Assembly: GCA_045811485.1 (NCBI GenBank)
Contig: JBJMTX010000021.1
Span: 18,570 to 82,569 of the forward strand
Length of the DNA: 64,000 nt
Direction of reading: 5' to 3'
From: Allosphingosinicella sp.
Lineage (GTDB): Bacteria > Pseudomonadota > Alphaproteobacteria > Sphingomonadales > Sphingomonadaceae
Made by a program: the position numbers and the translations under genes. The stretch's first letter is position 1. Each line of letters opens with the position of its first letter. A model generated the notes under the pieces. The model worked only from the letters and a program-made list of their open reading frames with translations, was not told the DNA's origin and did not search any database. This document shows, in pieces, positions 6,615 to 56,572 of the stretch.

Positions 6615-7975
6615 GCGGGCTCGAGGTCATCACTTTGGGCTGCCGGCTCAACGCCGCCGAGAGCGAGGCGATGCGCGCGCTGGCGGGCGGCGAGGACGAT
6701 CTCGTCATCGTCAACAGTTGCGCCGTCACCAACGAAGCGGTGCGCCAGACCCGCCAGGCGATCCGCAAGGCCAAGCGCGCCCGGCCCGAGGCGCGCGTCG
6801 TGGTGACGGGCTGCGCGGCCCAGATCGAGCCGGAAACTTTCGCGGCGATGCCGGAAGTGGACGGGGTCGTCGGCAATGGGGAGAAGTTCGACCTCTCGTC
6901 GTTCCAGCGCAGGCTGGAACCCCAGGGGGCGAAGACTTCGGAGCCTGTTCTCGCTGGGGCCCCAGCCTTCGCTGGGGCGACGGTTTCCGATATCTTCGCC
7001 GTGCGCGAGACCGCGCCGCACCTCGCCGTCGGCTTCGCCGAGCGCCACCGCGCCTTCGTCGAGGTGCAGAATGGCTGCGACCATCGCTGCACCTTCTGCA
7101 TCATTCCCTACGGGCGCGGGAACAGCCGAAGCGTGCCGGCGGGGCTGGTCGTCGAGCGGATCAAGGCCTTGGCCGGCGAGGGCTTCCGCGAGGTGGTGCT
7201 GACCGGGGTCGACGTGACCAGCTACGGCCCGGACCTCCCCGGCGCGCCGACCTTGGGCATGCTGATCGAGCGAATCCTTCGCCACGTGCCGGAGCTTGAG
7301 CGCCTCCGCCTCTCCTCGCTCGACTGCATCGAGATCGACGAGCGGCTTGAGGACATCGTCGCCCACGAGCCGCGCTTCATGCCGCACCTCCATATGAGCT
7401 TCCAGTCCGGCGACGACATGATCCTCAAGCGGATGAAGCGCCGCCACTGCCGCGCCCAGGCGGTCGCGACGGTCGCCCGGCTCAAGGCGAGGCGGCCGCA
7501 GCTGGCGATCGGCGCGGACCTCATCGCCGGCTTCCCCACCGAGACCGAGGCGATGCACGAGAACAGCGTCCGGCTGGTCGACGAGTGCGATATCGTCATG
7601 GGGCACATCTTCCCCTTCTCGCCGAAGCGGGGCACGCCGGCGGCGCGGATGCCGCTGGTCGAGCCGGCGGTGGTCAAGGAGCGGGCGCGGCGGCTGCGAG
7701 AGGCTTGCGCGCGGCGCAAGGCGGGGTGGCTGCACGGACTGGCGGGGACGACTCAGCGTGTGCTGGTGGAGAAGGACGGTCGCGGTCACGCGGAGAATTT
7801 CGCGCCGGTGGCAATGTTCCGTCACCCCCGCGAAAGCGGGGGTCCCGCTTCTTCGTCTGACACGGCGCCGGAAGAGAAGAAGCGGGATTCCCGCTTTCGC
7901 GGGAATGACGGGGAGATAATCTCCGTCCTCATCACCGCCGTCGAAGCCGGCACCCTCGTCGGGACCCCCGTATGA
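6611..7975 (+). CDS. mtaB: tRNA t6A37 methylthiotransferase MtaB, carrying two in-frame palindromic insertions
   Basis: GTG start at 6611; TLGCRLN, VNSCAVT and QNGCDHRCTFCIIP (radical SAM) motifs; dapF-mtaB-ftsY order. Confidence 0.95.
   Translation: MSGLEVITLGCRLNAAESEAMRALAGGEDDLVIVNSCAVTNEAVRQTRQAIRKAKRARPEARVVVTGCAAQIEPETFAAMPEVDGVVGNGEKFDLSSFQRRLEPQGAKTSEPVLAGAPAFAGATVSDIFAVRETAPHLAVGFAERHRAFVEVQNGCDHRCTFCIIPYGRGNSRSVPAGLVVERIKALAGEGFREVVLTGVDVTSYGPDLPGAPTLGMLIERILRHVPELERLRLSSLDCIEIDERLEDIVAHEPRFMPHLHMSFQSGDDMILKRMKRRHCRAQAVATVARLKARRPQLAIGADLIAGFPTETEAMHENSVRLVDECDIVMGHIFPFSPKRGTPAARMPLVEPAVVKERARRLREACARRKAGWLHGLAGTTQRVLVEKDGRGHAENFAPVAMFRHPRESGGPASSSDTAPEEKKRDSRFRGNDGEIISVLITAVEAGTLVGTPV
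6897..6982. repeat. CGTC-tagged palindromic dimer (family A) inside mtaB
   Basis: CGTC-GTTCCAGCGCAGGCTGGAAC...GGGGCCCCAGCCTTCGCTGGGGC-GACG. Confidence 0.85.
7820..7910. repeat. CGTC-tagged palindromic dimer (family A) inside mtaB
   Basis: CGTC-ACCCCCGCGAAAGCGGGGGTCC...GGATTCCCGCTTTCGCGGGAAT-GACG. Confidence 0.9.
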
Positions 7976-11220: not shown

Positions 11221-11227
11221 GGCCCGC

Positions 11228-11311
11228 CGTCATTGCGAGCGAAGCGAAGCAATCCAGTACGGCCTCTGAGGCCCGCTGGATTGCTTCGTCGCTACGCTCC
11301 TCGCAATGACG
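11228..11311. repeat. CGTC-tagged palindromic dimer (family B)
   Basis: CGTCATTGCGAGCGAAGCGAAGCAATCCAG...CTGGATTGCTTCGTCGCTACGCTCCTCGCAATGACG, between convergent genes. Confidence 0.92.
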
Positions 11312-11313
11312 AC

Positions 11314-11962: not shown

Positions 11963-12072
11963 TCCTTCGATACGGGCCTTCGCCTTCGCTCAGTCCCTAC
12001 TCAGGATGAACGGTGGTTTGATCGCTCATCCTGAGTAGCCGGTGAGCGTAGTCGAACCGGCGTATCGAAGGA
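11963..12072. repeat. Inverted pair of CCTGAG/CGAAGG-type palindromic units (family C)
   Basis: TCCTTCGATACG...TACTCAGGATGA / TCATCCTGAGTA...CGTATCGAAGGA. Confidence 0.8.
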
Positions 12073-12073
12073 C

Positions 12074-13105
12074 CTAGCCCTGGAGCCGGTGCCGCTTCAG
12101 CGCGTGGCGGAGCTGGTCGTAGCTGAGGCTGAGGGCGGCCGCGGCGGCGCGCTGGTTGTAGCGGCATTTCTCGAGCGCGGCGGCGAGTATGGCCTTCTCA
12201 TATTCGGCGATGGCAAGCCGGAAGTCGGCGCAGGATTCGGGATTCCAGCTCGATCCGGCGGAGGCGGAGGTGCCGGCGGGCTCGGGCGGCAGGATTTCGA
12301 CCGTTCGCGGCTCGCTCGCCGATTGCGGCCGCCAGGGGGATTCGAACGGATCGAACTGGACCCGGTCGATCGGCTGCTCGTGATTCTCCCAGCGATAGAC
12401 GGCGCGCTCGACGACGTTCCTCAGCTCGCGGACGTTGCCGGGCCAGGTGTAGTTGAGAAGCCTGTCCATCGCGCCGGTGCTGAACCCCGGCCAGCTCGGC
12501 CATTCGAGCTCGAGCGCCATGCGGCGGGCGAAGAAATCGGTGAGGACGGGAATGTCGCTGCTCCGGTGGCGGAGCGGCGGAAGGGTGACCACCTCGAACG
12601 AGAGCCGGTCGAGCAGATCGGCGCGGAATCGGTGCCGCTCGGCGAGGCGCGGCAGGTCCTCGTTGGTGGCGGCGACGATCCGGACGTCGACATTGACCGG
12701 ACGCGAGGCGCCGATCCGGGTCACCTCGCCATATTCGACGACCCTCAGAAGCCGTTCCTGAGCGGCCTGGCTCAGGGTGGCGAGCTCGTCGAGGAACAGG
12801 GTTCCCGCGTCGGCCTCCTCGAAGCGGCCGGCGCGGGCCTTGGTGGCGCCGGTGAAGGCGCCGGCCTCGTGGCCGAACAATTCGGCCTCGATCAGGGTCT
12901 CGGGAAGAGCGGCGCAGTTCATCGTCACCAGCGGCCCGTCCCACCGCGAGGAGAGGTGGTGGAGGCGCTCGGCGATCAGCTCCTTGCCGGTGCCGCGCTC
13001 GCCGATGACGAGGACCGGGCGGTCGAGCGGCGCCGCCCGGCTCGCCCGCTCGACCGCGTCGAGGAAGGAGGAGGATTGGCCGACCAGCTGGGTATTGCGT
13101 TCCAT
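12074..13105 (-). CDS. pspF: Phage shock protein operon activator PspF (sigma54 bEBP)
   Basis: GERGTGKE, GAFTGA and FLDE motifs plus HTH; divergent from pspA; start assigned to MERNTQ. Confidence 0.95.
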   Translation of the reverse strand: MERNTQLVGQSSSFLDAVERASRAAPLDRPVLVIGERGTGKELIAERLHHLSSRWDGPLVTMNCAALPETLIEAELFGHEAGAFTGATKARAGRFEEADAGTLFLDELATLSQAAQERLLRVVEYGEVTRIGASRPVNVDVRIVAATNEDLPRLAERHRFRADLLDRLSFEVVTLPPLRHRSSDIPVLTDFFARRMALELEWPSWPGFSTGAMDRLLNYTWPGNVRELRNVVERAVYRWENHEQPIDRVQFDPFESPWRPQSASEPRTVEILPPEPAGTSASAGSSWNPESCADFRLAIAEYEKAILAAALEKCRYNQRAAAAALSLSYDQLRHALKRHRLQG

Positions 13106-16273: not shown

Positions 16274-16413
16274 CGTCATTGCGAGCGGAGCGAAGTAATC
16301 CTGAGCACCGGCCCGTTCACGCGCCTTGTCTGGATTGCTTCGTCGCTGCCGCGCAGCGGCAGTTTATCCTGAGCGCCGCCGCGGGCGGCGTCGAAGGGCT
16401 CCTCGCAATGACG
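16274..16413. repeat. Family B dimer with an extra CCTGAG...GTCGAAGG segment nested in the right arm
   Basis: CGTCATTGCGAGCGGAGCGAAG...TGGATTGCTTCGTCGCT[about 55 nt including ATCCTGAGCGCCGCCGCGGGCGGCGTCGAAGG]GCTCCTCGCAATGACG. Confidence 0.85.
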
Positions 16414-16438
16414 GATGGGCTCTGCTACCCGCGCCCCC

Positions 16439-17259: not shown

Positions 17260-17343
17260 CGTCATCCCGGCGGAAGCCGCCAGGAACCAATGCCGGTTCG
17301 GAAAGTCCGGTGTTCCTGGGCCCCGGCTTTCGCGGGGGTGACG
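17260..17343. repeat. CGTC-tagged palindromic dimer (family A, same subtype as the GIY-YIG flanks)
   Basis: CGTCATCCCGGCGGAAGCC..CAGGAAC...GTTCCTGGGCCCCGGCTTTCGCGGGGGTGACG. Confidence 0.85.
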
Positions 17344-21394: not shown

Positions 21395-21829
21395 TCAGGC
21401 GGGTTCGCGCGCCGGGCCGGCGATCAAAGCCTCGACGTCGGCCAGGAGAAGCAGGTCGCCTTCGGCCTCGACCGTCCCGCGGCCGATCCGCCGCCAACCG
21501 CCGTGAAGCGAGGCGGCCGGGGCGCGGGATTCCGCTTTCGCCTCGACGACGTCCTCGACGGCCTCGACCAGCAAGGCATAGGGATGGCCGTCGACGACGG
21601 CCATGACGGCCTCGCTGGCGCTTTCGTCGAGCCGCCGCGAGGGATCGAGCGAGGCGAGACAGTCGATCACGGTCAGCACCCGGCTTCGAAGGGCGGCGAG
21701 CCCGGCGACATGGGCTGGAGCCCCCGGCACCGGGGTCAGGGCCTCGATCTCGACGACCGATTCCACCTCGGCCGCGCGAAGGGCGATGCGCTCCCCGGCG
21801 AGCCGGACGATGAGCAGAAGCTCAGCCAT
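21395..21829 (-). CDS. cheW: Chemotaxis coupling protein CheW
   Basis: MAELLLIV...LTPVPGAPAHVAGLAALRSRVLTVID. Confidence 0.92.
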   Translation of the reverse strand: MAELLLIVRLAGERIALRAAEVESVVEIEALTPVPGAPAHVAGLAALRSRVLTVIDCLASLDPSRRLDESASEAVMAVVDGHPYALLVEAVEDVVEAKAESRAPAASLHGGWRRIGRGTVEAEGDLLLLADVEALIAGPAREPA

Positions 21830-24182
21830 GCCGGCGCCTCCGTCCCGCGGTCGGCTTGCCGGCGATCGCGGCGAGCAGGGCTTCGCGATCATAGCGATGA
21901 ATGCTTCCATCCTCCTCGGAGAGCGGTTCGGGACCGTTGCGTATGCGGACGACGCGCGAGGCGCCCGGAAGCTCTGGCGCGGCGCCGTCGTCGGCGCTGA
22001 CGATCGCGACGGCGGCCGCTTCGCTCCGCCCGGAGCCGAGAGCGACGACCTCATAGCCCGCGCCTTCGAGCAAAGGCCGAAGGATCGCCTCCATGAACGG
22101 ATCGCCGCTCGGAATGGCGCAGATCGGCCGCTCAACCTGGCGGGGCCCCTGCCCTCCGTGGCGGGCGAACAGCCAGTGAAGATCGAGCAATTCGGCCTGT
22201 TCCGGGCCGACCCGGACGACTCCCCGGACCTCGCCCGGCTCGGCGGCGGCGATGAGGCCGCCCGGAAGCGGGATGATGTCGACGACCTCGGCGAAGCCGT
22301 AGGCGATCTCCGCCGCTCCGTCGCTGAGGCGGAGAAGACGGATCGGGCGCTCCGGCGCCGTCGTTCCGCAGCCTTCGAGCGGAAGCAGGGCCTCGCCGAC
22401 GCAGACGTGGAGACGCCCGGCGCTGAGCCGGACCGAGTCCGCGGCGACGTCCTCGATGCGCTGGACGGCCGCGACCGGCACCAGCCGCTTGCGCCCGTCG
22501 AGGGTGGCGAAGAGCAGGGCGGCGGGGCCTTCGCTTTCCGCGCTTGCGGGGCGAGAGACCAATTCGGGTTCGGAATGCTCGCGATGAAGGGCCAGCCTCG
22601 CCTTGGCGGCGATTCCGGGCGGATCGAGCAGAAGGACGGGCTTGCCGTCGTCGGCGATGGTGGTTCCGGCATAGAGGCCGATCGCCATCACGGCGGGCGC
22701 CGCGGGCTTCACCACCAGCTCCTCATGATCGTGAATATGGTCGACCGCGAGCGCGTAGAGATCGGCGCCGGCCGGCTTGAGCAGAACCAGGCTCTGGGCC
22801 GCCGGATCCTCGGCTTCGCCGCGGCCCAGCGCCTCGCGCAGATAGACGAGCGGCACCCGGCGGCCGCGGATGGTGGCGACGGTGCCCCCGCCGACCTGCT
22901 CGACCCGCACGCCGCCGCCCTTGACCCGGACGATCTCCTCGATCGCCGAGCGAGGGATGGCGTAGACCTGGCCGGCGGCGCGGACGGTGAGGGCGGGAAT
23001 GATGGTGAGGGTGAGCGGGACCTTGAGGGTGAGGCAGACGCCCTGCCCCAGCCGGCTCTCGACCTCGACGAGGCCTCCGATCCGCTCGATATTGGCCCGG
23101 ACGACGTCCATCCCGACGCCCCGGCCCGAAAGGTCGGTCACCTCGGCGGCGGTGGAAAGTCCCGGCTCGAACACCAGGGCCGTCTTCTGAGCTTCGCTGA
23201 GGCGTTCGGCGCGCTCGGGCGTGAGGATTTCGGCGGCGAGGGCCTTCCGGACGAGCTTCTCGCCGTCGATCCCGCGGCCGTCGTCGGAGATCTCGAGCAA
23301 TATCTGGTTTCCGGCCTGGCGGGCGCAGACGCGAAGGCAGCCCGTCTCGGCCTTGCCCGCCCGCTTGCGCTGCGCCGGGGCCTCGATCCCGTGGTCGACG
23401 GCGTTGCGGATCATGTGGGTCAAAGGATCGCGGATCATCTCGATCATCTCGCGATCGATCTCGACGTCCCCGCCGTCCATCTCGAGCGCGACCTGCTTGC
23501 CGGTCTGGCCGCACAGGTCGCGGACCATTCGCGGAAGCGGCGCGAAGAGGTTGTCGATCCGCTGCATTCGGGTTCGGGTGACGGCCTCGCGAAGGTCGGC
23601 GATGGTCGCGGAAACCCGGTCGAACGCCGTCTCAAGCTCCGTGCCGGCGCCGCGCTCGCGGATCCGGCGGGAGAGCTCGTTGCGGGCGAGCACGAGGTCG
23701 GAGACCCCGCTCATCATCCGGTCGAGCAGCTCGACGGGAAGCCGGATCGTCCGGCTCGAGGATTTCGCGGCGTGGCTGGCGGGCGCGGCTTCGGTCTCGG
23801 CGGTCTCGACGGGCGCGTTCTCGGCCAGCGCCTCGATCAGGGCGCTGTCGTCCTCGCTGGCGAGGGCCTCGCCGGTCTCGAGCGCCTCGACCAGCTCGCC
23901 GAGGCGGTCGATGACGGCGAGGACGGCGCTGACCAGGGCCGCGTCGGGCTCGCGCGTCCCCGAGCGGACGGCGGCGAGCGCATCCTCGGCGGCATGGCTG
24001 AGGGCGCGGATCCTGGGCAGGTCGAAGAAGCCGCTATTGCCTTTGACGGTGTGGACGAAGCGGAAGATCTCGTCGAGCCGGGCACGATCGTCCGGCGCCC
24101 CTTCCCACGCGACGATCTCCCCGGAGAGCGCTTCGAGCATCTCCCGGGTCTCGGCGATGAAATCGTTGATGAGATCGTCCAT
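21822..24182 (-). CDS. cheA: Chemotaxis histidine kinase CheA (HPt, HATPase, CheW-like domains, degenerate C-terminal receiver)
   Basis: FRFVHTVKG, HMIRNAVDHGIE and SGRGVGMDVV motifs. Confidence 0.97.
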   Translation of the reverse strand: MDDLINDFIAETREMLEALSGEIVAWEGAPDDRARLDEIFRFVHTVKGNSGFFDLPRIRALSHAAEDALAAVRSGTREPDAALVSAVLAVIDRLGELVEALETGEALASEDDSALIEALAENAPVETAETEAAPASHAAKSSSRTIRLPVELLDRMMSGVSDLVLARNELSRRIRERGAGTELETAFDRVSATIADLREAVTRTRMQRIDNLFAPLPRMVRDLCGQTGKQVALEMDGGDVEIDREMIEMIRDPLTHMIRNAVDHGIEAPAQRKRAGKAETGCLRVCARQAGNQILLEISDDGRGIDGEKLVRKALAAEILTPERAERLSEAQKTALVFEPGLSTAAEVTDLSGRGVGMDVVRANIERIGGLVEVESRLGQGVCLTLKVPLTLTIIPALTVRAAGQVYAIPRSAIEEIVRVKGGGVRVEQVGGGTVATIRGRRVPLVYLREALGRGEAEDPAAQSLVLLKPAGADLYALAVDHIHDHEELVVKPAAPAVMAIGLYAGTTIADDGKPVLLLDPPGIAAKARLALHREHSEPELVSRPASAESEGPAALLFATLDGRKRLVPVAAVQRIEDVAADSVRLSAGRLHVCVGEALLPLEGCGTTAPERPIRLLRLSDGAAEIAYGFAEVVDIIPLPGGLIAAAEPGEVRGVVRVGPEQAELLDLHWLFARHGGQGPRQVERPICAIPSGDPFMEAILRPLLEGAGYEVVALGSGRSEAAAVAIVSADDGAAPELPGASRVVRIRNGPEPLSEEDGSIHRYDREALLAAIAGKPTAGRRRRHG

Positions 24183-24239: not shown

Positions 24240-24243
24240 CGCC

Positions 24244-24277
24244 CGTCATCCCGGCGAAAGCCGGGACCCAGGAACAC
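24244..24277 (+). repeat. Single CGTC REP arm left of the GIY-YIG gene
   Basis: CGTCATCCCGGCGAAAGCCGGGACCCAGGAACAC; 33/34 identical to 24645-24678. Confidence 0.92.
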
Positions 24278-24326
24278 CGCGCTGCCATCGCTTTCACCCG
24301 ACGGCGGCCCATGTTAGTGGAAACCG

Positions 24327-24698
24327 ATGGGCGGGCACGTCTATATCCTCGCAAGCCGAAAACACGGCACGCTCTACATCGGCGTCACCTCCGACCTTCC
24401 GAAACGCATTTACGAGCATCGCGTGGACGCGGTGCCAGGATTCACCCGCCGCTACGGCGTCAAGCGGCTCGTCTATTTCGAAACGTTCGATGACATCGAA
24501 GCCGCGATCGTGCGCGAGAAGCGAATGAAGGAATGGCAGCGCAGCTGGAAAATCCAGCTGATCGAGCGCGCCAATCCCGACTGGACCGATCTCGCCGTGA
24601 AGCTCCTGGGCTTCGAACCGCTTCCGTCGCCGCCGGTCCTCCACCGTCATCCCGGCGAAAGCCGGGACCCAAGAACACGAAAATACCCGATCCGATGA
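24327..24698 (+). CDS. Small stand-alone GIY-YIG nuclease
   Basis: GHVYILAS...TLYIGVTSDLPKRIYEH; LVYFE; AIVREKRMK; LIERANPDW. Confidence 0.95.
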   Translation: MGGHVYILASRKHGTLYIGVTSDLPKRIYEHRVDAVPGFTRRYGVKRLVYFETFDDIEAAIVREKRMKEWQRSWKIQLIERANPDWTDLAVKLLGFEPLPSPPVLHRHPGESRDPRTRKYPIR

Positions 24699-24759
24699 GG
24701 GCGCTTGCTCGCTACGGAGAAGCCTTCGTTCCTGGGTCCCGGCTTCCGCCGGGATGACG
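24645..24759. repeat. CGTC REP dimer right of the GIY-YIG gene (family A)
   Basis: CGTCATCCCGGCGAAAGCCGGGACCCAAGAACAC...GTTCCTGGGTCCCGGCTTCCGCCGGGATGACG. Confidence 0.93.
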
Positions 24760-25395
24760 TCAGGTGGGAATCGCCGCGCCGATGAGGAGCGTCCCCTCCT
24801 CCTGGTCGGCGACCTGGACCTCGCCGCCGCATTCGTCGAGCAGGCTGTGGACCAGCCAGGCGGCGGCGCCGCGCGGGGCGATCGATTCTTCGCTGCTCTC
24901 GCCGAGCAGGGCGCGCTTCAGCTCCGGATCGAGGACGATCCGGGGCCCGTCGGCGCGGACGACGATGTCGAGGCCGGAATCGTGCTTCTCGGCGCCGACG
25001 TCGAGCCGGCCGCCGCGGACGAGGGCGTCGCCGGCGATGAGGACGAGGTTCAAGAGGATCTTGAGCGCCGACTTGCTCATCGTCGGCTCGTCGACCATCC
25101 AGCCCAACTGGATCCGGCCGTCGCCGCCGAACAGCCCCTCGATCGCCACCCGCGCCTCGCGCGTGTCGACCTCGTCGCCGAAGCCGCCCGCGGCGCCGAA
25201 CGCCAGGCGGAAGAATTTGAGCTTGTTGGCGCTGGCCCGAGCGCTCTCCCCGAGCAGGTCCATGCAGCGCGCCCGCATCTCGGGATCATGCTCGTCGGCG
25301 AGCAATTCGATGCCGTTGTTGAGCGCCCCGACCGGTGACAGCAGATCGTGGCAAAGACGTGAGCACAGCAGGCTGGCAAATTCGTGGGATTTCAT
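24760..25395 (-). CDS. chpT: Histidine phosphotransferase ChpT
   Basis: ASLLCSRLCHDLLSPVGALNNGIELL and KLKFFRLAFG motifs. Confidence 0.95.
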   Translation of the reverse strand: MKSHEFASLLCSRLCHDLLSPVGALNNGIELLADEHDPEMRARCMDLLGESARASANKLKFFRLAFGAAGGFGDEVDTREARVAIEGLFGGDGRIQLGWMVDEPTMSKSALKILLNLVLIAGDALVRGGRLDVGAEKHDSGLDIVVRADGPRIVLDPELKRALLGESSEESIAPRGAAAWLVHSLLDECGGEVQVADQEEGTLLIGAAIPT

Positions 25396-25657
25396 GGCGA
25401 TTGGAGCCCCTGTCGCGCCGGTTTCACCCCTATTGGCCGGATGGGAATCGAGTTGCAAGGCGGGACGGGTGGCCGGGGCGGAAGCGAAGGCGGATCGGCC
25501 CAATGCCCGGGCGCGCGGCAGTGTCCCGATGTGGATTTTAGAGCGAGTCGGATGGATGACGGCCTGCGCCAGTTTGGCCGTGACGCTGCCAGCGGGTCCT
25601 CCTAAAAGCAGACCTTGGCGTGTAATTCTGCTCAAGGGCTCAAAAATCTGCAGCCTT

Positions 25658-26965
25658 TCAGGCGACTTCGAGCTGGTCGTCTAACGTCTCAGGCGGCAGC
25701 ACATACTTATAGACAAGCAGATTCCGAACCACATGAGGATGGACATGGAATGCTTCCGCGCATGCTCGGATGTCCTCTGATTTCGGGTTATCGAAATCCA
25801 CAAACTCCCGTACGCCGCGAAGCGGACAAAGGAAACTCTGTGCAAAAGCGCGCTGAAACTTCTGACGGTCGGACTTCGCGGAGCTGATCGGGCCGAATGC
25901 AGATTCGTCTGTCCAAATCGCATCGCCAAGCAATCGAGACACTTCGAAGCGAACCGCATCCGTTCGCGTGGAGATGAGAGTGACCTTCTGCTTGGATTGT
26001 GTAGTGCGCAGCCTAGTAGCATAGGGTAGATTCCGCCCTGTCTCGGTGGTTGCCTTCAGATCGTCCCAACGAGCGAGCAGCAAGTCTGAGAGTGATTTAT
26101 CACTGATCGGAGCGGAGTGAAGGCCGAAGCCATCACGAAGTTGGGACGCAGCTAGTTCGGCAAGCTGCCATGGGCTCGGGTAAGCCAGTTCTGTTTTTGA
26201 GAGATCGACGCGCTCCGCAAGTTTGAAGTCGAGCACGACGTCGGATGCTTCGGAAGCAGCAATCGCGCTCTCCAGTATATCAGCCGAATGGGCCCCCTGC
26301 GCCGCGATAGCGGCCTCCTCCAGATCGCGCTCATTGAGCCGATCCGAGATTGCTAGAAAGCGTTCGACAACTTCACTTGGCGCCTCATCGGCATCATATC
26401 CAAGGCAGGCTTCCAGCCGCCGCCATGCCGTGAGCTCCGGTTCTTTGCGTTCGACTACGAGCTGATCGACAAGCTCGCGCAGAACCGGGGCGTCATTCGA
26501 GTGCGCGCAACTTTCTAGCACGAGGTTGAAGAAGTTATCGATCCCGACCTCGAATTGCGAGGCCTGGATCGTCCGGACGCGCGTATCGAGGTAGCGCAGC
26601 TTCGCGGCCGCGTGCTGCCGGCTAAGGCTTGGAGCGAAGGTTACACGATCACCCCCGGAATAGATCATAACAGGGGGCCATTGCGTGCCGCCGGAGGCCG
26701 CGCTCAGCTCATGGCGCATGCGCCAGTCAACGGACGGAAGACTGGTATTATCAACGGGTTCGCAGCGAAGCCGCCACCAATTATCAGCAAACCATAAGCT
26801 CAGACTTACAGCCGATGCTCGAAAGTATTCGCGATTTGTATTCGATTCGAGATCTGCGATCCGCGTTAATATTTCATCGCCAAGGCGAATAGAAATCTCA
26901 GCGACATCTGCTTGGCGCTCACTCGGCTCCGGCCATGAGGCTGAAATTTCGAAGTAGCCGCTCAT
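25658..26965 (-). CDS. Hypothetical 435-aa protein with a degenerate ImmA/IrrE-like C-terminal domain
   Basis: ATG at 26965 overlaps the upstream stop (ATGA); RFEVSRLLGD...RQKFQRAFAQSFLCP resembles the M78 pattern without HExxH; lower GC and atypical codon usage. Confidence 0.75.
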   Translation of the reverse strand: MSGYFEISASWPEPSERQADVAEISIRLGDEILTRIADLESNTNREYFRASAVSLSLWFADNWWRLRCEPVDNTSLPSVDWRMRHELSAASGGTQWPPVMIYSGGDRVTFAPSLSRQHAAAKLRYLDTRVRTIQASQFEVGIDNFFNLVLESCAHSNDAPVLRELVDQLVVERKEPELTAWRRLEACLGYDADEAPSEVVERFLAISDRLNERDLEEAAIAAQGAHSADILESAIAASEASDVVLDFKLAERVDLSKTELAYPSPWQLAELAASQLRDGFGLHSAPISDKSLSDLLLARWDDLKATTETGRNLPYATRLRTTQSKQKVTLISTRTDAVRFEVSRLLGDAIWTDESAFGPISSAKSDRQKFQRAFAQSFLCPLRGVREFVDFDNPKSEDIRACAEAFHVHPHVVRNLLVYKYVLPPETLDDQLEVA

Positions 26966-27534
26966 CTGCCGTATCGTCCCTGTGCTGCATCTGCCAGCGT
27001 AATCGCCGCCTGCACCGTCATGGCGAGTCTTTGCGTTATCACCGCTGAGTCTCGCGCGTAAGCCCAATCACGGAATCGTGAAATTACTTTAATCGCGACT
27101 GGATCGCCAGGAAGCAGGGGATAGCCATGGTAAAGCGCTTGCCCCTCATTGGTAAGCCGAGCCTCGTATACCCAGCCATTGTCGTCGATGGACCATAGCA
27201 ATCGAGGAACCCCCTTGGCCTCCGCTTCGCTTGTAAGTCCTGCGACGATCCCTCGCTTTATCAAACCGGGAACGCGTTTCATGTCATCCGGCGTAAAACC
27301 GGCATGCTCGTCGCAATATGTTGGATCGTCCGAAATGCCAGGAATAGGCTCCAGACCGAAGGCCCGCGGATTGCGCTTGTGTTTGGCGTAAGGCTGGTGG
27401 CGCGCCTGCGCGCTCAACGCATCCAATGCATCGTCGCCGAGCGGGGGCGTGCGGAGCCGGCGCTTCACATTCGTGCCATGGCGCTCGGCGTTCGTTCTCG
27501 TGGGTGGACGCCGACCGGTCATTCGCGAGGGCAT
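26962..27534 (-). CDS. Hypothetical 190-aa protein (possible toxin or nuclease)
   Basis: YAKHKRNP...TYCDEHA...WSIDDNGWVYEARLTN...YHGYPL; translationally coupled to the next gene. Confidence 0.75.
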   Translation of the reverse strand: MPSRMTGRRPPTRTNAERHGTNVKRRLRTPPLGDDALDALSAQARHQPYAKHKRNPRAFGLEPIPGISDDPTYCDEHAGFTPDDMKRVPGLIKRGIVAGLTSEAEAKGVPRLLWSIDDNGWVYEARLTNEGQALYHGYPLLPGDPVAIKVISRFRDWAYARDSAVITQRLAMTVQAAITLADAAQGRYGR

Positions 27535-27955
27535 AAACTACGAGCATCTAGGTGCAATAGGTGAGCGAGCATCCGAAAGGACGGTGGTGCGCGATGGCAT
27601 CTGCTGGACGCAAAACCATCAACTGCCGGTCCGGTAACGGCCAGAAGCCGCCATCTGGGGCTGTGCTGCGGATCGACGGCCTTTCGCCCTTGGCGGACAG
27701 CTTCGTACCGGCCTCCAGTGCGATCCCCCGTCCAGTCGCACCCTTGCTGGACAGGTAATCTGTTTATGCTATGTTCCAGCTATGGGCAGCTACGGACTCA
27801 TCAAGGCTTGGAGCGTCGCGAGACGCTCCGGACCGCTTTCGCCGCGAAAGCTCGGGGAAAAAGCTCGACATCGTGAACTTCGTGAACTTCGCAGGGGGAT
27901 AGCGCCGGTTCGGGCCGCTTGAATTCACTGCGCGCAACGCCACATCGGATCCGGA

Positions 27956-32963: not shown

Positions 32964-33004
32964 GCGGCGCATATGGGGAAAGCGAGCGGGTGGCGCAAGA
33001 TACC

Positions 33005-33134
33005 CCCTCTCCCTGTAGGGGAGAGGGAGGGGCCCGCCGCGGAGCGGTGGGAGGGGTAAGGGACTGTCGGCGCCGAAAATGCCCTCACCCCGCTCGCCTT
33101 CGGCGAGTCGACCCTCTCCCCTGCAGGGAGAGGG
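33005..33134. repeat. CCCTCTCCC...GGGAGAGGG palindromic dimer (family D)
   Basis: Two CCCTCTCCC-N-GGGAGAGGG hairpins about 110 nt apart, with GAGGGGTAAGGG / CCCTCACCCC inner arms. Confidence 0.85.
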
Positions 33135-51926: not shown

Positions 51927-53674
51927 TCAAGCTCCGACCGCTTCTGCTCGCCGCCGCGCTCGCCTTGCCCGCCGCTCCGGCCTTCGCCGACGACGCGGCA
52001 TCGGCAGCGCCGTCCTCCTCGCTGAGCGCGGCCGAGCGCAGCCTCTATCGCGACGTCTTCGCAGCGATCCGCGCCGGCGACTGGGCGGGCGCGTCGGCGA
52101 GGCTCGATTCGATGCCGGGCGGAGCGCTCGACAATGTCGCCCGGGCCGAGCTCTATCTCGCCAAGGGCTCGCCGCGAGTCGAATTACCCCAGATCATGGC
52201 CGTGCTCGAGCGGGCGCCGGAGCTTCCCAAGGCCGACCAGCTCGCCCGCCTGGCGCAGAGCCGGGGCGCGACGGACCTTCCCGCCCTTCCCCAGGCCCAG
52301 ACGCTGCTGTGGGTCGGAAGCCAGCCGCGGCGCGAGCGCGCGGAGTCGACCAGGAACGATCCCGTCGCCGGCGAGATCGAGCCGAGGGTCCAGCCGCTGA
52401 TCAAGGACAACCGGCCTTTCGAGGCGGAGACGGCGTTCCTCGAGCGCCAGGACGCTCTCGGCCCCGACGCCCGAACCGAATTCCAGCAGCGCCTCGCCTG
52501 GTCCTATTACACGATCGGAAGCGACAGGGACGCCCGTCGGCTTGCCGCCCTCGCCCGCGCCGGAACCGGCGACTGGGCGATCCAGGGCGCCTGGACGGAA
52601 GGTCTCGCCGCCTGGCGGCAGGACGATTGCAAGGCCGCGGCGGACGCATTCGATTTCGTCGCCGGGCGCTCGAGCGACGTCGAGCTCAACGCCGCCGCGC
52701 ATTACTGGGCGGCGCGCGCCGAGATGATGTGCGGCCGTCCGGAGCGGGTTCAGGCCCATCTGCGCTCCGCCGCCCGCCAGAAGGAGACCTTCTACGGCCT
52801 CCTCGCCGTCACCGCGCTCGGAATTCGCGGCCGCGAGGCGACCGGCCTCCACGATTATCGCGACTCGGAATGGCGGAGCGTCGCGGGCAAGCCCAATGTC
52901 CGCGCCGCGCTCGCGCTGGCCGAGATCGGCGAGACCGACCTCGCGGACCAGTTCATCCGCTACCAGGCGCGGATCGGCGGCCCGGCCGACCACAATGCCC
53001 TCCTCCACCTCGCCGCCGACCTCAATCTCGCCTCGACCCAATACTGGCTCGCCCACAACGCGCCGCGCGGGGCGAGCGTCAATTTTGCCGCCCGCTATCC
53101 GCGCCCCGACTGGCAGCCGACTCGGGGCTGGCGGGTCGATCCTTCGCTCGCTTTCGCCCACGCCCTGCAGGAGTCGAATTTCCGCACGTCGGTGGTGAGC
53201 CCGGCCGGAGCGGTCGGGCTGATGCAGGTTCGGCCCGGAACCGCCGGCGACATTGCCCGCGCGCGCGGCGAGGCGTTCGACAGCCGGATGCTGACCAGCC
53301 CGGCCGCGAACATCGAGTTCGGCCAGAGCTACATAGAAAGCCTTCGCGACAACGGCGCCACCGGCGGCCTGCTCCCCAAGGTGATCGCCGCCTACAATGC
53401 CGGCCCGGTGCCGGTCGCCGAATGGAACAGCCGCCGCTTCGACCGCGGCGATCCCCTGCTCTACATCGAGTCGCTGCCTTATTGGGAGACTCGCGGCTAC
53501 GTCCCGATCGTCCTGCGGAACTACTGGATCTACGAGGAGGAGGCGGGGAAGACGGGCCCGAGCCGGGCCGCGCTGGCGCAGGGCATGTGGCCGAGATTCC
53601 CGGGCATGGCGGGAGCGACCGCCGTGCGGCTCATGGCGGACGAGACGAAGCTGGCCTCCCGCGAGGGCGAATAG
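51923..53674 (+). CDS. Lytic transglycosylase (SLT domain)
   Basis: Signal peptide; QESNF, GAVGLMQV, AAYNAG and ETRGYV motifs. Confidence 0.95.
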   Translation: MIKLRPLLLAAALALPAAPAFADDAASAAPSSSLSAAERSLYRDVFAAIRAGDWAGASARLDSMPGGALDNVARAELYLAKGSPRVELPQIMAVLERAPELPKADQLARLAQSRGATDLPALPQAQTLLWVGSQPRRERAESTRNDPVAGEIEPRVQPLIKDNRPFEAETAFLERQDALGPDARTEFQQRLAWSYYTIGSDRDARRLAALARAGTGDWAIQGAWTEGLAAWRQDDCKAAADAFDFVAGRSSDVELNAAAHYWAARAEMMCGRPERVQAHLRSAARQKETFYGLLAVTALGIRGREATGLHDYRDSEWRSVAGKPNVRAALALAEIGETDLADQFIRYQARIGGPADHNALLHLAADLNLASTQYWLAHNAPRGASVNFAARYPRPDWQPTRGWRVDPSLAFAHALQESNFRTSVVSPAGAVGLMQVRPGTAGDIARARGEAFDSRMLTSPAANIEFGQSYIESLRDNGATGGLLPKVIAAYNAGPVPVAEWNSRRFDRGDPLLYIESLPYWETRGYVPIVLRNYWIYEEEAGKTGPSRAALAQGMWPRFPGMAGATAVRLMADETKLASREGE

Positions 53675-53677
53675 CCC

Positions 53678-53768
53678 CGTCATTGCGAGCGGAGCGAAGC
53701 AATCCAGCGTCGGCATTTGTCGCAACCGCTGAGCTGGATGCCGCGTCGCTTCACTCCTCGCAATGACG
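53678..53768. repeat. CGTC-tagged palindromic dimer (family B)
   Basis: CGTCATTGCGAGCGGAGCGAAGCAATCCAG...CTGGATGCCGCGTCGCTTCACTCCTCGCAATGACG. Confidence 0.92.
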
Positions 53769-53769
53769 G

Positions 53770-53784
53770 GTTCTTGATCTGTTC
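53770..53784 (+). promoter_or_regulatory. Alphaproteobacterial LexA (SOS) box
   Basis: GTTC-TTGATCT-GTTC, an exact GTTC-N7-GTTC match, 24 nt before the start codon. Confidence 0.75.
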
Positions 53785-53808: not shown

Positions 53809-54885
53809 ATGCCCCGTCCCGACGTCCATCACGGCCGCGGCGCGCCCGAGAATCGGACGCCGACGCGCTTCAACCTGCGGGTTCGCGAGGCCGACGGCGA
53901 CTGGCTCGACGCGCGCGACGAGGTGGACGATGGGCCGCCGCCGCTTCGAACCACGGTCACCGTCGAGAAGCCCAAGACGATCATTGCGTGGAACCGCTCG
54001 CCGGACATCGGCTTCGACCGCTCGATCAATAGCTACCGGGGCTGCGAGCATGGCTGCATCTATTGCTTCGCCAGGCCCACCCATGCCTTCCACGATCTCT
54101 CGCCCGGGCTCGACTTCGAGACCAAGCTGTTCGCCAAGCCGGACGCGGCGAAGATCCTGCGCGAGGAACTGGCCAAGCCGGGCTACGCCGTGCGGCCGAT
54201 GGCTCTGGGCACCAACACCGATCCCTACCAGCCGATCGAGGGCAAATGGCGGATCACCCGGTCGGTGCTCGAGGTGCTCGCCGAAACGAAGCATCCGGTG
54301 ACGATCACCACCAAGTCGGACCGGGTGCTCCGGGACCTCGACATATTGGCGCCGATGGCGGCGCAGGGGCTGGCGTCGGTCGCCTTGTCGGTGACCTCAT
54401 TGACGCCGGAAATCTCGCGCACCCTCGAGCCGCGGGCACCGGCCGGGCGCAAGCGGATTGCGGCGGTGAAGGCGCTGGCCGGGGCCGGAGTGCCGGCCCA
54501 TGTCGCGATCGCCCCGGTCATCCCCGGGATCACCGACCATGAGGTCGAGCATATCGTCGAGGCGGCGGCGGAGGCCGGGGCGATCGGCGCCTTCTTCCTC
54601 CCCGTCCGCCTTCCCCACGAGGTCGCGCCGCTGTTCCGGGCGTGGCTCGACGAGCATTTCCCCGACCGCGCCGACAAGGTGATGAACATCATCCGGGCCA
54701 TGCGCGGAGGGAAGGACAATGACCCCAACTGGTTCACGAGGATGCAGGGCTCCGGACCGTGGGCCGAGCTGATGCGGGTCAGGTTCGAGGTGGCGGCGAA
54801 GAAACACGGGCTGAACCGGGAGAAGAGGAAGCTTCGCTGCGATCTGTTCGAGCCCCCGCAGGGGCCGCAGCTGAGATTGCTTTGA
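53809..54885 (+). CDS. PA0069/SplB-like radical SAM protein
   Basis: NSYRGCEHGCIYCFAR, GTNTDPYQP and LEPRA motifs. Confidence 0.93.
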   Translation: MPRPDVHHGRGAPENRTPTRFNLRVREADGDWLDARDEVDDGPPPLRTTVTVEKPKTIIAWNRSPDIGFDRSINSYRGCEHGCIYCFARPTHAFHDLSPGLDFETKLFAKPDAAKILREELAKPGYAVRPMALGTNTDPYQPIEGKWRITRSVLEVLAETKHPVTITTKSDRVLRDLDILAPMAAQGLASVALSVTSLTPEISRTLEPRAPAGRKRIAAVKALAGAGVPAHVAIAPVIPGITDHEVEHIVEAAAEAGAIGAFFLPVRLPHEVAPLFRAWLDEHFPDRADKVMNIIRAMRGGKDNDPNWFTRMQGSGPWAELMRVRFEVAAKKHGLNREKRKLRCDLFEPPQGPQLRLL

Positions 54886-54886
54886 C

Positions 54887-54977
54887 CGTCATTGCGAGCG
54901 GAGCGAAGCAATCCAGTCCGGCCTATATCGCAAGCGCTGCGCTGGATTGCCGCGTCGCTTCGCTCCTCGCAATGACG
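54887..54977. repeat. CGTC-tagged palindromic dimer (family B)
   Basis: CGTCATTGCGAGCGGAGCGAAGCAATCCAG...CTGGATTGCCGCGTCGCTTCGCTCCTCGCAATGACG. Confidence 0.93.
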
Positions 54978-54979
54978 GG

Positions 54980-56572
54980 CTACGCCGCGCTGGCCAGCTT
55001 ATAGTCCCGGTACTGCTCCCTCAGCGCCGTCTTGAGCAGCTTGCCGGTCGCGGTGTGGGGGAGGCTGTCGACGAAGAGTATCTCGTCGGGGAGCCACCAG
55101 CGGGCGACGCAGCCGGAGAGGTGGTCGAGGATCTGCTGCGGAGTGACGTCCGAGCCCGTCTTCCTCACCACCAGGAGGATCGGCCTTTCGTCCCACTTGG
55201 GGTGCCTGACCCCGACCGCCGCCGCCTCGGCGACGCCCGCGCAGCCTACCGCGGCGTTTTCGAGGTCGATCGAGCTGATCCATTCGCCGCCCGACTTGAT
55301 CACGTCCTTCGAGCGGTCGGTGATCTGGAGGACTCCATCGGGGTGGAGCGCAGCGACGTCGCCGGTGTCGAACCAGCTCTCCTCGTCGATCGAGTCGCCG
55401 GCTTCGTCCTGGAAATAGCGGCGGATGATCCACGCCCCGCGAGTCTGCAGGCGGCCCGAGCTCTTGCCGTCGCGGGGAAGGACCCTGCCCTCCTCGTCGA
55501 CGGTGCGGAGCTCGACTCCGAACGGCACCCGGCCCTGCTTGCAGAGCAGGTCGACGCGCTGCTCGCGGCCGAGCTCGTCCCAGTCGCCGCTGCCGGCGCC
55601 GACCGTTCCGAGCGGCGACATCTCGGTCATCCCCCAGGCGTGGCCGACGCGGATGCCCCGGTCCATGAACCATTCGATCATCGCCCGCGGCGCCGCCGAG
55701 CCGCCGATATGGACGGTGCCCAGCTTGCCGAGATCGGACCCGGTCGAATCGACATGGTTGATGAGGGCCAGCCAGACCGTCGGAACGCCGGCCGTGTGGG
55801 TCACGCCCTCCGCCTTCATCAGCTCGCACATCACCTCGGGCGTGTAATCGGCCGAGAAGACCATCTTCCCGCCCGCCATCGCCGTGCAGAAGGGAAGGCC
55901 CCAGCCGGCGGCGTGGAACATCGGAACCACCGGGAGAACCACCGAGCGGGCGGAGAGGTCGAAGACGTCGGGGCTCATCTGGACCATCGAATGGATCATC
56001 GCCGAGCGATGCTCGTAGAGCACGCCCTTGGGATTGCCGGTGGTCCCGCTCGTGTAGCAGAGCATCACCGGGTCGCGCTCGTCGCCCTCCAGCCAGCCAT
56101 AATCGGCGCTCTCGCCGGCGACGAGCGAATCGAACTCGCCATCGTCGAAGCAGATATAATGCTCGATGCTCGTCCAGCGCGGCTTGAGCCGCTCGACGAG
56201 CGGCGCGAAGGCCTTGTCGTAGAGCAGCACCCGATCCTCGGCATGGTTGGCGATGTAGACGAGCTGCTCGTCGAACAGGCGCGGGTTGATCGTGTGGATG
56301 ACGCCGCCCATCCCGATCGCGCCGTACCATGCGACGACGTGGCGGGCATGGTTCATCGCCAAGGTGCCGATGCGGTCGCCGGGCCTGAGATCGAGCCGCT
56401 CGAGCGCGCGGGCGAGCTTTCGCGAGTCGCGGGCGATTTCGGCCCAGTTCGTGCGCGCGGTCGTTCCGTCGGCGTAGCGGGAGACGAGCTCGCGCGTTCC
56501 GTGCTCGCGCGCCGCATGGTCGAGGATCCGCATGATCCTGAGCGGCCAGTCCTGCATCCCCCCGAGCATCAA
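54980..56572 (-). CDS. Acyl-CoA ligase (long-chain/medium-chain fatty acid-CoA ligase family)
   Basis: YTSGTTGNPKG, WGMTE, TGD and DRSKDVIKSGGEWISS motifs. Confidence 0.95.
   Translation of the reverse strand: MMLGGMQDWPLRIMRILDHAAREHGTRELVSRYADGTTARTNWAEIARDSRKLARALERLDLRPGDRIGTLAMNHARHVVAWYGAIGMGGVIHTINPRLFDEQLVYIANHAEDRVLLYDKAFAPLVERLKPRWTSIEHYICFDDGEFDSLVAGESADYGWLEGDERDPVMLCYTSGTTGNPKGVLYEHRSAMIHSMVQMSPDVFDLSARSVVLPVVPMFHAAGWGLPFCTAMAGGKMVFSADYTPEVMCELMKAEGVTHTAGVPTVWLALINHVDSTGSDLGKLGTVHIGGSAAPRAMIEWFMDRGIRVGHAWGMTEMSPLGTVGAGSGDWDELGREQRVDLLCKQGRVPFGVELRTVDEEGRVLPRDGKSSGRLQTRGAWIIRRYFQDEAGDSIDEESWFDTGDVAALHPDGVLQITDRSKDVIKSGGEWISSIDLENAAVGCAGVAEAAAVGVRHPKWDERPILLVVRKTGSDVTPQQILDHLSGCVARWWLPDEILFVDSLPHTATGKLLKTALREQYRDYKLASAA

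Follow-up and report, generated by a model that had tools for sequence, protein, structure and literature searches.

Does a small nuclease gene bracketed by tagged palindromic repeats belong to these repeats, and could its product be the enzyme that spreads them? The question is raised by a 516-bp cassette in a 64,000-nt stretch of Allosphingosinicella sp. DNA (the whole stretch is hereafter called the window), which comes from a genome of 3.6 Mb with 68% GC in 53 contigs. The cassette, located between chpT and cheA, is made of a gene encoding a stand-alone GIY-YIG nuclease of 123 residues and of three copies of a CGTC-tagged repetitive extragenic palindrome (REP), here named F1. CGTC-tagged REPs had been surveyed without a dedicated transposase being found (Di Nocera, De Gregorio & Rocco 2013, PMC3733652), as the original prediction for this DNA correctly stated when it proposed the nuclease as the CGTC-REP analogue of RAYT. 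We show that the GIY-YIG gene and its CGTC-tagged repeat are a specific cognate pair, with one nuclease per repeat family. This conclusion follows from the boxing of all five small nuclease paralogues of the genome, from the pattern found around 127 homologous genes, and from the comparison of repeat copy number with gene presence in congeners. The proposed analogy therefore stands as regards the pairing and the RAYT-like arrangement. It is not new, and its mobilisation step can only be put forward tentatively.

Such a dedicated GIY-YIG enzyme of CGTC-type REPs has already been published as the Ssn family with its NTS/SRM (Ssn-related motif) repeats (Chenal et al. 2025, Nat Commun 16:2388, PMC11893778), and the present locus is a further member. 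The central idea having been published, the locus opens no new field. Ssn proteins are single-domain GIY-YIG nucleases (cd10448, 'GIY-YIG_unchar_3'). SsnA of N. meningitidis, a protein of 94 residues inactivated by the Y6A, Y17A and E64A mutations, binds the NTS repeat CGTCATTCCCGCGMAVGCGGGAATCYRG only as single-stranded DNA (ssDNA) and only on one strand. Ssn nucleases cut ssDNA site-specifically, a few nucleotides upstream of the flanking NTS/SRM hairpins (CGTCATTCCCGCG...), and SsnA leaves the duplex uncut; homologues from other species cut their own repeats. The SRM was found in the flanks of 71% of the Ssn homologues, on both sides in 42%, and an Ssn gene was present in 81% of the genomes having over 200 repeats. 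The repeat-rich hosts listed include Rhizorhabdus and Sphingomonas. The role shown for SsnA is the modulation of natural transformation, through restriction of incoming ssDNA in Neisseria. The authors also discuss the resemblance of NTS-ssnA-NTS to an insertion sequence and to REP-associated transposases, mobility being untested there (PMC11893778). A text search of this paper retrieved no mention of Di Nocera, of GTAG/CGTC tags or of paralogues, and a literature search for a follow-up on Ssn mobility retrieved none. The NTS/SRM motifs described in 2025 are the same kind of repeat as the 'orphan' CGTC-tagged REPs surveyed in 2013, and the text search shows no cross-citation.

One nuclease per repeat family

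Five small nuclease paralogues, sharing 33-60% identity with one another, are encoded in the genome. Each of them has palindromic repeats on either side at a distance of at most 160 bp, and the repeat family differs from one paralogue to the next. Boxing by one family on both sides concerns only 27 of 2771 genes (1%) of a crude gene set, so the boxing of 5/5 paralogues is far beyond chance. At one of these loci (C50), the gene is located inside a doublet, in the order left arm, gene, right arm. A de novo census of 18-mers with at least 6 copies identified the five families, F1 to F5, as the most abundant repeats of the genome (a 14-mer mask was dropped as too noisy, having covered 12% of this GC-rich genome).

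F1 is represented by 137 copies with at most 3 mismatches, 57 of which are exact, and CGTCA precedes 83 of the 90 exact F1 cores. F1 occurs as 20 '+-' doublets spaced by 53-89 nt, plus about 50 singlets. F1 is thus a palindromic unit with CGTC at one end, extragenic and present in high copy number, as defined for the CGTC-tagged REP superfamily. F3 and F4 also carry CGTC at one end of the palindrome, are extragenic and often form inverted pairs. On the other hand, F2 and F5 are untagged, unlike the members of that superfamily, and the enzyme missing from the 2013 survey is the one that the Ssn paper supplies. The families were compared with the published SRM motif, HGTCWYN(0-2)YYVSBRHN(0-5)WNVSBRGN(0-2)RNCYNB, which F1 and F3 fit and outside of which F2, F4 and F5 fall (Table 1).

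The absence of any RAYT gene from the window, stated in the original prediction, is confirmed; five RAYT-like Y1 genes (PF01797) are found elsewhere in the genome. Each of them has a low-copy repeat of its own on both sides, such as GTGCCAGCTACGTGCCAG, AAAACGGGGACAGCATACATTTT or GTGCACTGTCACCG, and none of the five is boxed by any of F1-F5. Since the RAYTs have repeats of their own, the abundant families belong to the GIY-YIG genes. Hence, classical REPtron-like units coexist in this genome with Ssn/REP units.

The same pairing is observed outside this genome. Eighty homologue loci were collected from Alpha-, Beta- and Gammaproteobacteria, Bacteroidota, Cyanobacteria, Planctomycetota, Patescibacteria and others. 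At 64 of the 80 loci, a minimum of 20 matched bases is common to the 350-bp flanks upstream and downstream of the gene, as compared to 3 of 800 random placements at the same loci, which bears out the flank enrichment that had been anticipated. The shared sequence is nearly always of the form (C/T)GTCA(Y)-stem-loop-stem-(R)(Y)CCA, with stems that vary in a compensating manner. In a combined set of 127 genes (the 80 loci, 40 congener loci and 5 loci of the genome itself), a tagged hairpin was present within the 200 bp preceding the gene in 85 of 127 cases and within the 260 bp following it in 85 of 123, versus a background of 0.4 per kb. The tags face outward: the nearest upstream copy is on the coding strand in a ratio of 62:23, and the nearest downstream copy is inverted in a ratio of 60:27. 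The median distance between gene and hairpin is 37 nt upstream and 27 nt downstream. The hairpin detector accepted loops of 3-9 nt and perfect stems; it misses F2, F4 and F5, which were scored by motif. A looser detector, with loops of up to 21 nt, was dropped because of false matches inside genes.

The type of repeat also follows the type of protein. Relatives of the C35 paralogue carry F4, those of C44 carry F2 and those of C31 carry F5, down to about 63-72% identity. On a maximum-likelihood protein tree, the repeat class changes 19 times, versus about 50 times in shuffles, in agreement with the proposed co-phylogeny of nuclease and repeat. This tree test is confounded by host phylogeny, whereas the within-genome and within-genus contrasts are free of that effect. 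In addition, a systematic difference between the left and right hairpins of a locus is often present where the stem begins, T..A versus C..G. Such a difference is seen at loci L044, L052, L076, L133, L137, L144 and L149 and at C44 of the genome itself, with CGTCATGCTGAA... versus CGTCACCCTGAA... and TCCCGGC versus CCCCGGC as examples; it resembles distinct left and right ends.

Two of the small GIY-YIG reading frames of the genome deserve a description. The most divergent paralogue (C31:15083-15346, minus strand), which shares 33% identity with the window protein, is flanked on both sides by F5 repeats, a family devoid of the CGTC tag. No stop codon interrupts its frame across the repeats and into a SpoU-like methyltransferase open reading frame (ORF), which gives an open frame of 381 residues. 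A sixth small GIY-YIG ORF (C14:24027-24270, minus strand) is from another subfamily and lacks boxing by a single repeat family.

The cassette and its putative Ssn-family nuclease

The cassette is arranged as REP(+), nuclease gene, REP(+), 51-nt spacer and REP(-). Its ends are 32-nt inverted repeats (24244-24275 and 24728-24759) that are 97% complementary, with CGTC tags facing outward. The GC content of the cassette is 61-63%, versus about 70% in the flanks. The left repeat is separated from the nuclease start codon by 49 nt. Its inner tail is conserved and the sequence beyond the tag is variable, the conserved repeat beginning at the tag. A centroid fold of its hairpin was computed, and its sequence is a match to the published SRM search motif. 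The internal repeat is a direct copy of the left one: positions 24243-24277 and 24644-24678 match at 34 of 35 positions and lie 401 bp apart. The internal copy overlaps the 3' end of the nuclease ORF and forms, with the right repeat, a REPIN-like doublet. Complementarity of the right repeat amounts to 97% with the left arm and 94% with the internal one. The near-identical arms and the inverted partner ending in GACG at 24759 were thus well described in the original prediction. As ssDNA, the 24645/24759 pair would fold into a long hairpin of -44.1 kcal/mol (z = -7.8), a value that 0 of 200 shuffles equalled. The chpT stop codon (TCA on the plus strand, 24760-24762) directly abuts the right repeat.

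F1 is less widespread in the window than had been stated: apart from the cassette, it is found only as a gene-less doublet at 17260-17343, and the claim that the family is scattered across the window was overstated. The approximately 13 remaining REP sites are divided among four other families. All these repeats are extragenic, and most of them directly follow a stop codon.

The stand-alone GIY-YIG gene itself is beyond question. Its product matches PF01541 (E=1.1e-13, residues 3-76), and no second domain was found; an NCBIfam profile search of the ORF returned no match. The conserved core corresponds to residues 1-94 (24327-24608). The AlphaFold2 model has a pLDDT of 93.6 and predicts one compact domain up to about residue 95, with a confidence that falls after residue 100. 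The nearest solved folds are UPF0213 BH0048, Slx1 and EF2693, in agreement with the sequence matches in the PDB, and the match to the I-TevI fold is weak (E about 2.3). Over all 94 residues and without gaps, the protein is 53-56% identical to a 94-residue ORF of N. gonorrhoeae (E=1.6e-31 with tblastn, the criterion of the Ssn paper being a tblastn E < 1e-10, and 5e-36 with BLASTP). That ORF is itself surrounded by canonical NTS copies. Neither N. polysaccharea nor N. lactamica was found to have a small GIY-YIG gene when searched, in line with the Ssn paper. Residues Y6, Y17, R27, H31 and E64 are invariant in 38 homologues (the window protein, used as reference, included). Among them, Y6, Y17 and E64 are the residues mutated in the Ssn paper and are present at exactly those positions.

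Gapless identity, the invariant Y6, Y17 and E64, the fit of F1 to the SRM and the GIY-YIG fold make it very likely that the ORF encodes an SsnA-like, single-domain member of the Ssn family, and that the arms are its cognate Ssn-related motif. The likeness extends to the core of about 94 residues, to the CGTCA-stem-loop-stem-CC hairpins that flank the gene and to the dispersal of the repeat in about a hundred genomic copies. In contrast to the published systems, the host is here a sphingomonad with five paralogues, each having its own repeat family, and three of these families fall outside the SRM; the ORF has a REP-encoded C-terminal tail, and its assignment to the Ssn family is made by sequence.

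Table 1 Features of the cassette and its surroundings, repeat families and RAYT-like genes. Positions with a C prefix refer to other contigs of the genome; the others are window positions.
Feature	Position	Strand	Remarks
Whole cassette, REP(+) / ssn-like gene / REP(+) / 51-nt spacer / REP(-)	24244..24759		516 bp
Left F1 repeat	24244..24277	+	CGTCA tag, 7-bp stem TCCCGGC/GCCGGGA, GAAA loop, CCCAGGAAC tail
Putative Ssn-family GIY-YIG nuclease ORF	24327..24698	+	123 aa, between left and internal F1 copies
Internal F1 repeat	24645..24678	+	direct copy of left repeat, 1 mismatch; left arm of REPIN-like doublet
Right F1 repeat	24728..24759	-	inverted; right arm of doublet and right end of cassette
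Gene-less F1 doublet	17260..17343		left arm partly decayed; only other F1 locus in window
cheA	21822..24182	-	left neighbour; Hpt, H-kinase_dim, HATPase_c, CheW
chpT-type histidine phosphotransferase (HPTransfase)	24760..25635	-	right neighbour
F1			repeat at window nuclease gene; ~137 copies; CGTC-tagged, fits SRM motif
F2			(T/C)CCCGGCGAAGGCCGGG(A/G); ~215-233 copies; without CGTC tag, outside SRM motif
F3			CGTCATTCCCGCGCAAGCGGGAATCCCG; ~48 copies; CGTC-tagged, fits SRM motif
F4			CGTCATTGCGAG...AATCCAG; ~180 copies (220 by looser pattern); CGTC-tagged, outside SRM motif
F5			GCTCATCCTGAGTAG...; ~56 copies; without CGTC tag, outside SRM motif
RAYT-like genes	C6:43516-44145, C14:32033-32731, C14:40191-40895, C1:15893-16633, C17:~105300-105872

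Turnover of cassettes and repeats in the genus

The adjacency of chpT and cheA, stated in the original prediction, is found in 18 of 18 congeners, and the empty site that had been predicted exists: in at least 9 congeners the spacer is empty and measures 72-92 bp. Three congeners have only a doublet there, each from a different repeat family. In two others the spacer holds another Ssn cassette, with a protein 52-53% identical and its own repeats on both sides; one of these cassettes is on the other strand, and in one (L091) the gene lies inside the doublet. Unrelated inserts are found in the remaining congeners. Cassettes and doublets have thus been gained independently at one hotspot spacer and are lineage-specific. 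Such turnover at a single spacer within a genus is the kind of evidence that the question of mobility needs.

The number of Ssn nuclease genes varies from 0 to 7 across congeners, and repeat copy number was compared with the presence of the cognate gene in 19 genomes. The three genomes with the F4-cognate gene have 220, 263 and 113 F4 copies, whereas the other 16 have 97, 75, 71, 27, 11 and 0-4 copies (one-sided Mann-Whitney p=0.003). For the F1-like hairpin, the four genomes that have a gene flanked by it contain 233, 96, 55 and 26 copies, and none of the 15 others exceeds 21 (p=0.0007). The F1 subtype proper, with the tail CCCA[G/T]GAAC, occurs essentially only in the genome studied here, in about 60-96 copies, many of them exact. 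The window nuclease is likewise confined to this genome, its best congener match being 71% identical. The expected relation between gene and copy number holds in that the highest counts are found with the cognate gene; G003, G009 and G015 deviate from it, having many F4 copies without that gene. Ssn gene number and SRM hits are correlated (rho 0.48-0.53), the pattern used being truncated, without stem pairing and with a chance background of about 50-110 hits per genome. In G014 and G022, SRM-like hits are numerous and the sole GIY-YIG hit is weak. Some of the mismatches between genes and repeats in congeners may stem from gaps of the assemblies at repeats.

The window was also aligned to the syntenic contigs of five relatives, with about 80% identity in genes. 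Repeat sites coincide with breaks of the alignment. Of the eight REP sites of the window that could be aligned (7877-7913, 11224-11313, 11963-12074, 16274-16416, 17260-17343, 33004-33134, 53674-53771 and 54883-54981), none has the same repeat family in the relatives; some are empty there (3-49 nt) and some contain another family. Since no alignable site keeps its family, the repeats are young relative to the species splits, and spacers located just after stop codons are re-used. As individual cases, the spacer orthologous to the F1 doublet at 17260-17343 contains a different palindrome in G017 and an insert of about 1 kb in G005 and G009. Site 33004-33134 contains the untagged family CCCTCTCCCCTGCAGGGAGAGGG in the window and an F1-like doublet in G005.

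Mobility of the cassette and alternative roles

How could the nuclease act on its repeats? In the likely explanation, the 516-bp cassette, of the 'NTS-ssn-NTS' type, entered the spacer between the chpT stop codon and the region upstream of cheA in this lineage only. By homology with SsnA, the enzyme should bind the tagged F1 hairpin in ssDNA only, on the tag-bearing strand only, and should cut a few nucleotides 5' of the CGTCA tag, just outside the element; going by the literature, its cleavage of F1 should be specific for ssDNA. Because the tags are on opposite strands at the two ends, nicks would fall just outside each end, one per strand. More tentatively, they would start a copy or repair process spreading the cassette together with gene-less REP singlets and doublets. 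F1 singlets and doublets would then be non-autonomous derivatives of an autonomous cassette, copied after nicks at the outer tags, and the nuclease would be what drives dispersal.

Several observations are consistent with such a mobile cassette, which we regard as possible without counting on it. The geometry, with outward tags and heterotypic left and right ends, is that of an insertion sequence, and the gene lies inside a doublet at several loci, including C50 and L091. The boundary of the repeat is the tag, beside the reported SsnA cut site. Among the 19 genomes, the F1 subtype and its gene co-occur only here; repeat counts are highest where the cognate gene is present, and independent gains have occurred at one site.

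Other observations weigh against this interpretation, most of them at the mobilisation step. GIY-YIG nucleases hydrolyse DNA, and we know of no strand-transfer or joining activity for them. Neither a target-site duplication nor an insertion footprint was recovered in the comparisons with relatives, where diverged spacers hid the exact boundaries. Repeats persist without the gene, since G003, G009 and G015 keep between 70 and 100 F4 copies (71-97) with no detectable cognate gene, and G006 has seven Ssn genes with near-background SRM-type hits. Each family has a single gene copy, although some 20 or more of its doublets could accommodate one. The sole published function of the family, modulation of transformation, is a different one. 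As to the enzyme itself, its last ~23 residues (about 101-123) form an unusual tail encoded by the internal REP copy, the protein used for comparison with SsnA is that of N. gonorrhoeae and not the assayed N. meningitidis protein, and its specificity for F1 is deduced from position and homology. Overall, that the nuclease mobilises its repeats is an idea that we retain with less than even confidence.

A second explanation would be that the nuclease serves the host as a modulator of ssDNA restriction or recombination, the repeats being cis marks that limit the integration of ssDNA and neither part being mobile today. This role is the only one shown experimentally for the family, with SsnA of N. 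meningitidis, and the extragenic position of the repeats, mostly right after stop codons, fits with it. However, a patchy and selfish-looking distribution, with 0-7 genes per congener, is not what it predicts, nor are independent cassette gains at one site and repeat sites that are lineage-specific at about 80% nucleotide identity. Five orthogonal systems are also hard to explain as a single host function. For this host, we know of no link to natural transformation. We therefore consider this explanation rather unlikely.

Unlikely as well, and a little more so, is a homing-type selfish gene that would land in pre-existing REP doublets through a cut at the hairpin and recombination between repeats, the repeats themselves having spread otherwise. 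It would account for genes within or beside doublets and for the direct REP repeats that flank the gene 401 bp apart, as expected if the gene and one arm had been copied into a doublet. Different Ssn cassettes at one hotspot and a gene number of 0-7 within one genus would also agree with homing. But the gene is present in a single copy for each family in spite of its many possible targets, and there is no other candidate spreader for F1-F5 because the RAYT-like genes have repeats of their own. Moreover, SsnA cuts ssDNA only, unlike classical homing endonucleases.

Finally, an incidental association, with REPs accumulating in permissive intergenic DNA near a small, dispensable UvrC/Cho-like repair gene, as the older annotation of such genes as UvrC N-terminal-like repair nucleases (PMC1839093) and the re-use of spacers by several repeat families might suggest, is extremely improbable in view of the family-specific boxing (5/5 versus 1% of genes), of its recurrence in 80% of homologues, from many phyla, versus 0.4% of controls, of protein clades that track repeat types and of the published cleavage specificity of the family. 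Chance association and a plain UvrC-like repair role are ruled out by the boxing statistics and by the tracking of repeats by clades. The genome also encodes UvrC.

Comparison of the cassette with known systems shows how far each analogy goes. Like REPtrons (RAYT, TnpA-REP, HUH-Y1; GTAG-tagged REPs, REPINs), the units described here have a single-copy enzyme gene per family boxed by inverted copies of its own repeat, a family dispersed as singlets and inverted doublets, and a tagged hairpin that would be recognised in ssDNA. In contrast, the enzyme is a hydrolytic GIY-YIG nuclease and not a HUH tyrosine transposase (PF01797) with a covalent intermediate, the tag is CGTC and not GTAG, and the genes are gained and lost quickly between congeners. 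With IS200/IS605 elements, the cassette shares a small enzyme that would read subterminal hairpins in ssDNA and cut beside them, as well as distinct left and right ends. However, both ends of these elements are cut on one strand and joined through a covalent tyrosine intermediate, whereas the inverted ends of the window element would be cut on opposite strands by an enzyme for which no joining activity is known.

Branched and hairpin DNA are the substrates of Slx1, a structure-specific nuclease that needs Slx4 and a RING domain. Slx1 and the UPF0213 proteins (YhbQ, BH0048, EF2693) are the best structural and PDB sequence matches of the window protein. Their identity with it is only 24-32%, and no repeat association has been described for them. 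Homing endonucleases of the I-TevI type share the GIY-YIG core and a selfish mobile context. They differ by a separate DNA-binding domain, by cutting of duplex DNA and by their location in introns, inteins and phages, the window protein being single-domain and encoded in a chromosomal intergenic spacer.

Beyond the published work, this genome adds five orthogonal nuclease-repeat pairs, three families outside the SRM, heterotypic ends, a genus-level hotspot with independent gains, RAYTs with separate repeats and an explicit link to CGTC-tagged REPs. Five pairs in one genome are a natural test bed for the comparison of specificities and for new ssDNA cutting specificities. By extension, Ssn proteins might be the engine of the whole CGTC-tagged REP superfamily and of the untagged F2 and F5, with a hydrolytic ssDNA nuclease, in place of a transposase, driving an insertion-sequence-like element (tag-hairpin, gene, hairpin-tag) whose non-autonomous derivatives would be REP singlets and doublets, and with several orthogonal systems operating in parallel in one genome, here five next to five RAYT systems; we offer this as a conjecture that could well prove wrong.

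Two observations concern the right neighbour of the cassette. The longest chpT ORF, of 291 residues with a TTG start, probably extends too far in the 5' direction, since the alignment with relatives starts only at about residue 54-80. Adjoining chpT, a segment of about 2.5 kb (25461-27938) is missing from 5/5 syntenic relatives and has a GC content of 53-60%, versus about 68%. It contains two ORFs on the minus strand, 25658-27067 (469 aa) and 26962-27534 (190 aa), neither of which belongs to a Pfam family, and is a lineage-specific islet.

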